Origin: an uncultured Nitrososphaerota archaeon
GTDB taxonomy: Archaea > Asgardarchaeota > Njordarchaeia > Njordarchaeales > Panguiarchaeaceae
Assembly (NCBI GenBank): GCA_964636085.1
Contig: CAZWPQ010000001.1
Location: 73,427-137,426, forward strand
Length of the DNA stretch: 64,000 bases
Reading direction: 5' to 3'
Shown: positions 28,551 to 58,035 of the stretch, piece after piece
How positions within the stretch are numbered: the stretch's first letter is position 1
Layout of the letters: each line of letters opens with the position of its first letter
Translations under genes and position numbers: made by a program
The notes under the pieces: generated by a model
Database searches by the model: none
Seen by the model: the letters and a program-made list of their open reading frames with translations, nothing else
Told to the model about the DNA's origin: nothing

Positions 28551-29063
28551 TTGTTGACAAAAAAGGGGATAACCATGCATGCCAAAAAGCTACTTTATGC
28601 CAACACATTTTGTGCATATCGCGATAAGTACATGGGACGTATCATTTGTCGGCATAAATACAGTTATGGAGTATGTGACCTAGACCTATGCCCAATAGTC
28701 AACGATTATTATGCTAATGTTGTGTTCCAAGAGGAAGGCATAGTATTGGTTGTAAAACGCCCCTCGGGGGATAGTGTGGCTGGGATGTGGGAGCGATATA
28801 ACATCGAAATATCTCCAGAACTCGACAACGAGGATGATATCATAAAGTTCTGTATGGAGAAGACAAACGGTGTCCCAGAGATAATACGTAAGAAACTTCA
28901 GGAGAAAATACATGCACTATTCGAACGATGGAGATTTCTCAAATCTCGCGGTAAGAAGATTGGGGCGATAGAAACTGAAAAGAAAGTTGCTGAGGAAGAA
29001 ATAACTATAGGCGAGGAACTCTTAGAGGAAATCAAAGAGGTCGAAAAAGAAATCGAGAGTTAA
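28551..29063 (+). CDS. Mak16/eL28-family protein
   Basis: 'FCAYR...ICRHKYSYGVCDLDLCPIVNDYYANV...LVVKRP...MWER' parallels Mak16 'FCS.R...FCRNEYNVTGLC...SCPLANS.YATV...LYMKT...LWER'; acidic C-terminus. Confidence 0.85.
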   Translation: MLTKKGITMHAKKLLYANTFCAYRDKYMGRIICRHKYSYGVCDLDLCPIVNDYYANVVFQEEGIVLVVKRPSGDSVAGMWERYNIEISPELDNEDDIIKFCMEKTNGVPEIIRKKLQEKIHALFERWRFLKSRGKKIGAIETEKKVAEEEITIGEELLEEIKEVEKEIES

Positions 29064-29088
29064 CATAAATACTTCTCCTCTATAATAG

Positions 29089-29161
29089 TGGAGGGGGCGG
29101 GATTCGAACCCGCGGCCTCTGCCCTGCGAAGGCAGCGCTCTACCAACTGAGCTACCCCTCC
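29089..29161 (-). tRNA. tRNA-Ala(CGC), acceptor stem with A3:U70
   Basis: GGAGGGG-TA-GCTC..GAGC-G-CTGCC-TTCGCAG-GGCAG-AGGCC-GCGGG-TTCGAAT-CCCGC-CCCCTCC-A. Confidence 0.93.
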
Positions 29162-29211
29162 TAATTCTACAATCCCCCAATATATCCTATCCTATTTTTT
29201 TAGTTTTTTAA

Positions 29212-40225: not shown

Positions 40226-40334
40226 TGGTGGGCCGGGGCGGACTCGAACCGCCGACCTTACGGTATCTAACCTTTAACCACACACAAGCCACGCATACCT
40301 TCAGCCGTACGCTCTCCCTCTGAGCTACCGGCCC
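40226..40334 (-). tRNA. tRNA-Phe(GAA) with 34-nt intron at 37/38, CCA encoded
   Basis: GGGCCGG/CCGGCCC-ACCA; TACGG-CTGAAG[intron]A-CCGTA; CTGA/TTAG central helix. Confidence 0.9.
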
Positions 40335-57726: not shown

Positions 57727-57814
57727 TGGGCCCGGCGGGATTTGAACCCGCGACTTGCAGCTTTCTTCTCTCCATTAGAAGGCTGCCGCGCTATCCTAGC
57801 TACGCCACGGGCCC
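57727..57814 (-). tRNA. tRNA-Arg(TCT) with 13-nt intron at 37/38
   Basis: GCAGC-CTTCTA[ATGGAGAGAAGAA]A-GCTGC; CTTC/GAAG BHB helix. Confidence 0.92.
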
Positions 57815-57860
57815 TGGAGGAGAGACTAATTTTATATTTATATATGAGGGGATATTCTTA

Positions 57861-57944
57861 TAGGCCCGGCCGGATTCGAACCGGCGTCAGGGGATCTCCC
57901 CCAGCACCAGAGTCCCCCATGCTTGACCTCTACACCACGGGCCT
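57861..57944 (-). tRNA. tRNA-Gln(CTG) with 11-nt intron at 37/38
   Basis: A1:U72 pair (archaeal Gln hallmark); GGGGA-CTCTGG[TGCTGGGGGAG]A-TCCCC. Confidence 0.9.
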
Positions 57945-57949
57945 ATTCT

Positions 57950-58035
57950 TGGTGCGCCGGGCGGGACTCGAACCCGCGTCACCAGCTTGGAAGGCTTATG
58001 CCTGTGTTGGCATCCTTCCTCTAGACTACCGGCGC
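57950..58035 (-). tRNA. tRNA-Gly(TCC) with non-canonical 12-nt intron at 29/30, CCA encoded
   Basis: CCA[ACACAGGCATAA]GC-CTTCCAA-GCTGG; BHB AAGG-ATGC-CA|A...GCAT-AA|G-CCTT. Confidence 0.9.

Follow-up and report, generated by a model that had tools for sequence, protein, structure and literature searches.

The tRNA-Ala(CGC) gene and the alanine tRNAs of the genome

An intron-less tRNA-Ala(CGC) gene of 73 nt, in which CCA is not encoded, is located on the minus strand at positions 29089..29161 of the window, the whole stretch of 64,000 nucleotides that was analysed. The window (C1:73427-137426) belongs to G000, an archaeal MAG of 2.41 Mb in 102 contigs with 39% G+C and a completeness of 83%, many of whose tRNA genes contain introns. 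ARAGORN called a tRNA-Ala(cgc) at 29088-29161 on the minus strand, and the Rfam model RF00005 matched 29161-29089 over model positions 1-71 of 71 with 74.5 bits (E 1.8e-14; cut-off 29 bits). Read on the minus strand, the gene is composed of GGAGGGG-UA-GCUC-AGUUGGUA-GAGC-G-CUGCC-UUCGCAG-GGCAG-AGGCC-GCGGG-UUCGAAU-CCCGC-CCCCUCC-A, with UUCGCAG as the anticodon loop. The anticodon CGC (29126..29128, plus strand gcg), placed at position 34 by ARAGORN, reads GCG, and the discriminator base A73 (29089) is the final position of the Rfam alignment. A TATA-like A/T-rich element (ATATATT, 29179..29185), located 18-24 nt upstream of the mature 5′ end, is a putative archaeal promoter, judged from the sequence alone.

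The G3:U70 wobble pair is the textbook tRNA identity element that marks alanine in nearly all life. At the position of the G3 of canonical tRNA-Ala the gene carries an A (29159, plus-strand T), which forms a Watson-Crick pair with U70 (29092, plus-strand A) in the 3′ acceptor strand CCCCUCC. All 7 pairs of the acceptor stem GGAGGGG/CCCCUCC are of the Watson-Crick type and G:U is absent, including a G:U relocated to 2:71 or 5:68 as in mitochondria. The remainder of the canonical tRNA-Ala set (NGC anticodon, A73, G1:C72, G2:C71) is present and G3:U70 is missing. A preliminary description of this locus had reported exactly this, an A3:U70 pair in a stem free of G:U, and sequence, ARAGORN and Rfam (74.5 bits) all agree with it.

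The neighbours of the tRNA gene are housekeeping genes, encoding an eL28/Mak16-like protein, an aminotransferase, a signal peptidase and an SRP54-type GTPase. The eL28/Mak16-like gene (28551-29063, plus strand) ends 26 nt from the tRNA, and its match to PF01778 is weak (28.7 bits, under the cut-off). Six further tRNA genes, most of them with introns of 11-37 nt, are found at 1255-1438, 40229-40334 and 57727-58035 of the window; several of these six are misnamed (tRNA-???, Pyl, SeC) if ARAGORN is used without the intron option.

Besides the CGC gene in the window, G000 has two further alanine tRNA genes on two other contigs, one for the GGC isoacceptor (C9:22650-22721) and an intron-containing one for UGC (C24:10990-11075). 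The preliminary description had proposed to inspect the other tRNA-Ala genes of the genome, and both paralogues were found to share the A3:U70 stem: GGAGGGG/CCCCTCC and A73, and with them the A at position 3, are identical in the three genes. Acceptor stems were taken from all 39 Rfam tRNA matches in G000. None of the 39 contains G3:U70, so that a hidden canonical tRNA-Ala was not found among them, and in all full-length tRNAs other than tRNA-Ala the 3:70 pair is G:C or C:G. The same holds for G009, a genome of the other main genus with a completeness of 91%, in which the 35 non-alanine tRNAs have G:C (24) or C:G (11) at this position. In both genomes checked A:U at 3:70 is thus exclusive to tRNA-Ala.

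As three genes of G000, each on a contig of its own, agree in this stem, an error of base calling or assembly, a pseudogene and a stray copy were ruled out as sources of the unusual pair. This disposes of one case that had been named as a possible refutation, namely an erroneous base at 29159, the more so since the stem recurs in relatives. Together with the A3:U70 tRNA-Ala genes of 11 other species (see below) it shows that the pair is real and not an artefact.

Distribution of the A3:U70 pair in Njordarchaeales and other Asgard archaea

G000 is treated here as a member of the Asgard order Njordarchaeales, since its nearest named relative is labelled Njordarchaeota. Its alanyl-tRNA synthetase (AlaRS) is 64% identical to that of this relative, 'Candidatus Njordarchaeota archaeon B13_G17', a value which equals the level of identity to genomes of the same genus. 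For the order, 14 species were sampled and all candidate tRNA-Ala loci were taken; the genomes are incomplete MAGs throughout (66-91% complete).

The A3:U70 pair is found in 28 of 28 tRNA-Ala genes from 12 of the 14 species, 25 of these genes belonging to 11 species other than G000, while G3:U70 is present in 6 of 6 genes of the remaining two species (G013 and G007). The 15 tRNA-Ala genes of genus g1 (G000-G004) have the stem GGAGGGG/CCCCTCC. A different stem with A:U at 3:70, GGACGGG/CCCGTCC, occurs in the 13 genes of G005 and of six of the seven species of genus g3 (G006, G008-G012). The seventh g3 species, G013, and G007, which represents a separate family, each have three genes with the stem GGGCGGG/CCCGTCC and hence G:U at 3:70. 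The possibility that relatives would carry G3:U70, named beforehand as another refuting case, therefore does not apply to most of them. Two metagenome contigs with an alaS gene of the g3 type (Njord-type) likewise carry an adjacent intron-containing tRNA-Ala(CGC) with A3:U70.

No mixed state at 3:70 was seen in any of the 14 genomes of the order, and in each of 15 genomes all isoacceptors (2-3 per genome) are in the same state. G:C or C:G at 3:70 was never seen in the tRNA-Ala genes examined. As a separate peculiarity, the tRNA-Ala(GGC) of two g3 species, G011 (L007) and G006 (L081), has the anticodon loop UCGGCAA, in which C33 replaces the near-universal U33.

Across the phylum, the DNA pattern of an intron-less tRNA-Ala with A3:U70 was matched in 11 of 400 Asgard genomes, namely 10 genomes of the order and G111, which belongs to a different family. 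The same pattern with G3 was matched in 79 of 151 sampled genomes; it was found in none of the 12 A3 species of the order and in both of its G3 species. The GGC and CGC tRNA-Ala genes of G111 are both of the archaeal type and have the stem GGACCGG/CCGGTCC with A3:U70; in its sister genus, represented by G110, the stem is GGGCCGG/CCGGTCC with G3:U70. A third tRNA-Ala gene in the G111 bin (UGC) has G3:U70 and is located on contig L179 (G111:C521:1-4000), whose other genes include those for a phage baseplate/VgrG-like protein and a SAM lyase, along with three tRNAs of bacterial type that have CCA encoded. Given the phage-like genes and the CCA-encoding tRNAs, L179 was probably placed in this bin by mistake and derives from a phage or a bacterium, and G111 was not accepted as a genome of mixed state, as its lone G3:U70 tRNA-Ala sits on this contig. 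Since G111 belongs to a different family, its sister genus has G3:U70 and the deviating tRNA lies on the mis-binned contig, the A3:U70 pair of G111 apparently represents a second, independent gain.

In the AlaRS tree the families f1, f2 and f3 are united in a single clade (SH-aLRT 100), and G013 is nested in g3 as sister of G010 and G006 with a support of 91. G013 is moreover placed in one genus with A3 species. The most parsimonious history for the order therefore has a single gain and a single reversal, the latter in G013, and the reversal is likely. It cannot be taken as a proven fact, because an AU test with AlaRS alone did not reject a tree with the A3 species in a single group (delta lnL 16.2, p = 0.154).

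Decoding of alanine codons and features of the alanyl-tRNA synthetase

For the meaning of the GCN codons, 1,050 ORFs of outgroup loci were compared to G000 by tblastn, and the aligned residue was tallied for each G000 codon. Alanine was the main residue at all four codons, with a share of 0.38 at GCA (430 sites), 0.43 at GCC (276 sites), 0.39 at GCG (234 sites) and 0.35 at GCT (384 sites); the runner-up residues, S and G, each reached at most 0.10. Serine and threonine codons, which served as control, matched their own residue at 0.37-0.41, about the level of the GCN codons. As GCN sites are mainly alanine at the level of the control codons, these alignments indicate that GCN is alanine in G000 and that the code is unchanged. 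The earlier suggestion that the tRNA is charged with another amino acid, with GCG being ambiguous or reassigned, thus finds no support in the 234 GCG sites. A preprint of 2026 described CGG as a Trp codon in two hydrothermal-vent assemblies assigned there to one family of Njordarchaeales (10.64898/2026.04.02.715157). This reassignment does not apply to G000, since Arg has a share of 0.52 at 62 CGG sites; the genome also has a normal tRNA-Arg(CCG).

G000 has one AlaRS gene (C10; PF01411, 314 bits), and a small AlaX-like ORF lies elsewhere in the genome. The protein matches the AlaRS of A. fulgidus (3wqy_A) with E 1e-111 and contains the editing domain PF07973 (tRNA_SAD) in the downstream part of the same polypeptide. 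An apparent split of the enzyme into 576 and 305 aa (C10:53754-55478 and downstream; L031:1380-1520) coincides with a scaffold gap of 10 N, and the frame runs on into the HxxxH editing motif, so that AlaRS is not split. Its length in relatives is 916-944 aa.

In the AlaRS of A. fulgidus, Asn359 contacts the O4 of U70 through the major groove, and Asp450 the 2-amino group of G3 through the minor groove (PMC6055181). Both N359A and D450A still charge the wild-type tRNA, and G3:C70 is charged only after substitution of Asp450, which relaxes specificity and keeps the activity towards the wild-type tRNA; archaeal and human AlaRS are described as selecting by steric fit (PMC6055181). The preliminary description had proposed to check the G:U-reading residues of AlaRS, and the outcome was divided: the major-groove Asn is retained in G000 as N352 (PANIGG motif), whereas the minor-groove Asp is replaced by Leu (FYLNYG). 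At this position Leu is found in g1 and Ile or Leu in g2 and g3, so that all 10 A3 species with data have Leu or Ile. G013 and G007 have Val, G111 has Thr, and other Asgard lineages have E, Q, R, T or V, with non-acidic residues (V, Q, R, T) in many lineages that retain G3:U70. Leu or Ile was therefore rejected as a diagnostic marker. The loss of the Asp fits a relaxed minor-groove check, although it is not specific to the A3:U70 lineages, because the position is degenerate in G3:U70 Asgard lineages too.

Further changes at highly conserved positions are shared by the Njordarchaeales clade including G013, in which the conserved GGGYNLR is altered to GGAYNLR and a Gln in the C-terminal half of AlaRS to His. 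The Gly-rich motif of C-Ala (GGxGGG...GGG), which is conserved in other Asgard AlaRSs, is lost in all Njordarchaeales, including the G3:U70 species, as well as in G110 and G111 (loci L177-L178, L033-L062). Both origins of A3:U70 thus arose in lineages with a degenerate C-Ala.

To compare G111 with the A3 species of the order, 98 archaeal AlaRSs were aligned and columns were selected in which the residue of G111 is present in at least 80% of the Njordarchaeales A3 clade and in at most 10% of 81 other sequences. Two columns passed this filter. One is a Glu in the N-terminal motif CGDxEC (E44 in G000; the second Pro of GDPPC in A. fulgidus), which all 14 A3 sequences and G111 have; Ala is found here in G013, Leu in G007 and Pro in G110, and the share of Glu in the background is 3%. 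The other is an Asn directly after the D450 position, present in 13 of 14 A3 sequences (Ser in G005), in G111 and also in G013, with Ser in G110 and G007 and a background share of 1%. Background sequences used as control yielded 0-6 such columns, so that the two of G111 are ordinary in number, and the count was rejected as statistical proof of convergence. Only the locations of the two residues appear worth attention: the Asn column adjoins a known G3:U70-reading residue, and the Glu column agrees with the tRNA state at both gains and also where G013 differs. As they were noticed post hoc, they may serve as leads rather than proof. Single residues of this kind also occur in metagenome AlaRSs of other archaeal lineages (Ile at D450 in L106, Asn at the following position in L114, the CGDxEC Glu in L110 and L127), on contigs that do not carry tRNA-Ala.

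Proposed recognition of the altered pair and comparison with known systems

The A3:U70 pair at the gene level in 12 species, its uniformity within genomes, the standard reading of GCN as alanine and the substitutions in AlaRS are direct observations. We consider it likely that the alanine identity pair changed from G3:U70 to A3:U70 in all isoacceptors together with AlaRS, and that alanine is still charged. A single full-length AlaRS of the archaeal type, altered alongside the tRNAs, would then continue to charge tRNA-Ala. Leu or Ile would stand in place of the residue that in A. fulgidus reads the 2-amino group of G3 and excludes Watson-Crick pairs, and with this replacement an enzyme selecting by steric fit could accept the A:U pair, which is free of the amino group, and still refuse G:C and C:G, while the conserved N352 could go on contacting the O4 of U70. 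The A:U pair would be usable as a mark, because only tRNA-Ala has it at this position in G000 and G009. Among the options named beforehand, an AlaRS independent of G:U is the one we favour, given a change that is lineage-wide and uniform over the isoacceptors and a single AlaRS devoid of the minor-groove Asp.

A more far-reaching version of this reading, which we put forward only tentatively and would not yet bet on, is that the A:U pair is read positively by AlaRS and that it was gained twice independently (in the Njordarchaeales clade and in G111), each time along with the same rare changes, the CGDxEC Glu and the Asn beside D450, and was lost again once (in G013). A rival to the main reading is neutral drift under a generally relaxed enzyme, in which an AlaRS blind to 3:70 would recognise A73, G1:C72, G2:C71 and the overall shape, so that A3 and G3 would be interchangeable. 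G013 speaks for drift, since it has G3:U70 although the body of its tRNA is nearly identical and its AlaRS closely related, and so do the degeneration of the Asp450 position across many Asgard AlaRSs, the loss of the C-Ala motif in the order and in the family of G110 and G111 irrespective of the 3:70 state, and the finding that AlaRS-alpha of N. equitans alone charges minihelices free of G:U (PMC11392972). However, drift does not readily account for the lack of any mixed genome: two to three isoacceptors switched as one in 15 genomes, and this all-or-none behaviour argues that AlaRS is not indifferent to the pair. Nor would it explain why 3:70 of tRNA-Ala is never G:C or C:G and why A:U is exclusive to tRNA-Ala, or why the CGDxEC Glu follows the tRNA state across two gains and the difference of G013. 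Moreover, an enzyme blind to 3:70 must separate tRNA-Ala from many other tRNAs that start with GG/CC and carry A73. On balance we regard drift as rather unlikely.

Three other explanations carry much less weight. Editing of A3 after transcription, for instance to inosine, would restore a wobble with U70 in the mature tRNA, but the AlaRS changes which track the genomic state would be needless if the mature tRNA were canonical. We know of no enzyme that deaminates position 3 of a tRNA, and hence of no precedent for editing of A3; in addition, I3:U70 was reportedly inactive with E. coli AlaRS in work by Musier-Forsyth in 1991, as the 2-amino group is missing. This makes editing very improbable in our view. 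Slightly less credible still is a charging of these tRNAs with another amino acid, with all GCN codons or GCG alone being reassigned or ambiguous. The loss of the main alanine determinant would be in line with it, as would the sense-codon reassignment of CGG in another family assigned to Njordarchaeales (10.64898/2026.04.02.715157), but the predominance of alanine at all four GCN codons, the low share of S and G, the similar controls and the reading of CGG as Arg in G000 are against it. Finally, the fragmentation of the G000 MAG might raise the suspicion that the pair stems from a wrong base call, a faulty assembly, a pseudogene or a contaminating contig, a suspicion which has practically nothing left to it in view of the identical stem on three contigs, its A3:U70 counterparts in 11 other species, the high-scoring cloverleaf and the housekeeping neighbours.

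The loss of G3:U70 from tRNA-Ala in this lineage is real, with alanine decoding kept and AlaRS altered; the mode of recognition is what we infer from the sequences. A full-text literature search on tRNAs of Asgard archaea and Njordarchaeales did not retrieve any account of an archaeal lineage, Asgard or other, in which G3:U70 is missing. A whole clade outside organelles has replaced this pair, with a second origin elsewhere and one species that probably reverted. It offers a natural experiment in which a synthetase and its tRNAs shift an identity rule under an unchanged code, and it names residues for testing. If A:U is indeed read positively, the oldest element known from the 'second genetic code' would have acquired a new mode of recognition, and AlaRS and tRNA would form a natural pair orthogonal to G3:U70 systems; should the AlaRS reject G3:U70 substrates, a ready-made orthogonal AlaRS/tRNA pair would be at hand for genetic-code engineering.

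The system shares with the canonical archaeal one the NGC anticodons, A73, G1:C72, G2:C71, a single full-length AlaRS and the major-groove Asn, and differs from it by A:U at 3:70 in every isoacceptor, Leu or Ile at Asp450, the motif GGAYNLR and the loss of the Gly-rich motif of C-Ala. Natural tRNA-Ala without G3:U70 is otherwise known from mitochondria, where AlaRS is likewise presumed to have co-evolved: human mitochondrial tRNA-Ala has G5:U68 and its mt-AlaRS is independent of G3:U70 (PMC6451123), and that of Drosophila has G2:U71 (reviewed in PMC9976931). Those are reduced organelle systems that keep a relocated G:U, whereas the archaea described here, whose genomes each yielded about 40 tRNA genes, have no G:U in the stem. 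Among archaea, the catalytic fragment AlaRS-alpha of Nanoarchaeum equitans resembles the predicted behaviour in charging substrates with a Watson-Crick 3:70 pair (PMC11392972). That side activity, however, is weak and was seen in vitro with a single subunit of an enzyme that is split, and both the complete enzyme and the tRNA-Ala of N. equitans still use G3:U70 (PMC11392972). In the present case AlaRS is unsplit and the cell's own tRNA-Ala is without G:U. A parallel to the proposed mechanism is provided by mutants of A. fulgidus AlaRS (D450) and human AlaRS (N317/D416), in which loss of the minor-groove Asp relaxes the rejection of Watson-Crick 3:70 pairs and activity is kept (PMC6055181). Those mutants were made in the laboratory and tried on G3:C70, whereas here the substitution is the natural state, fixed and paired with A3:U70 tRNAs.
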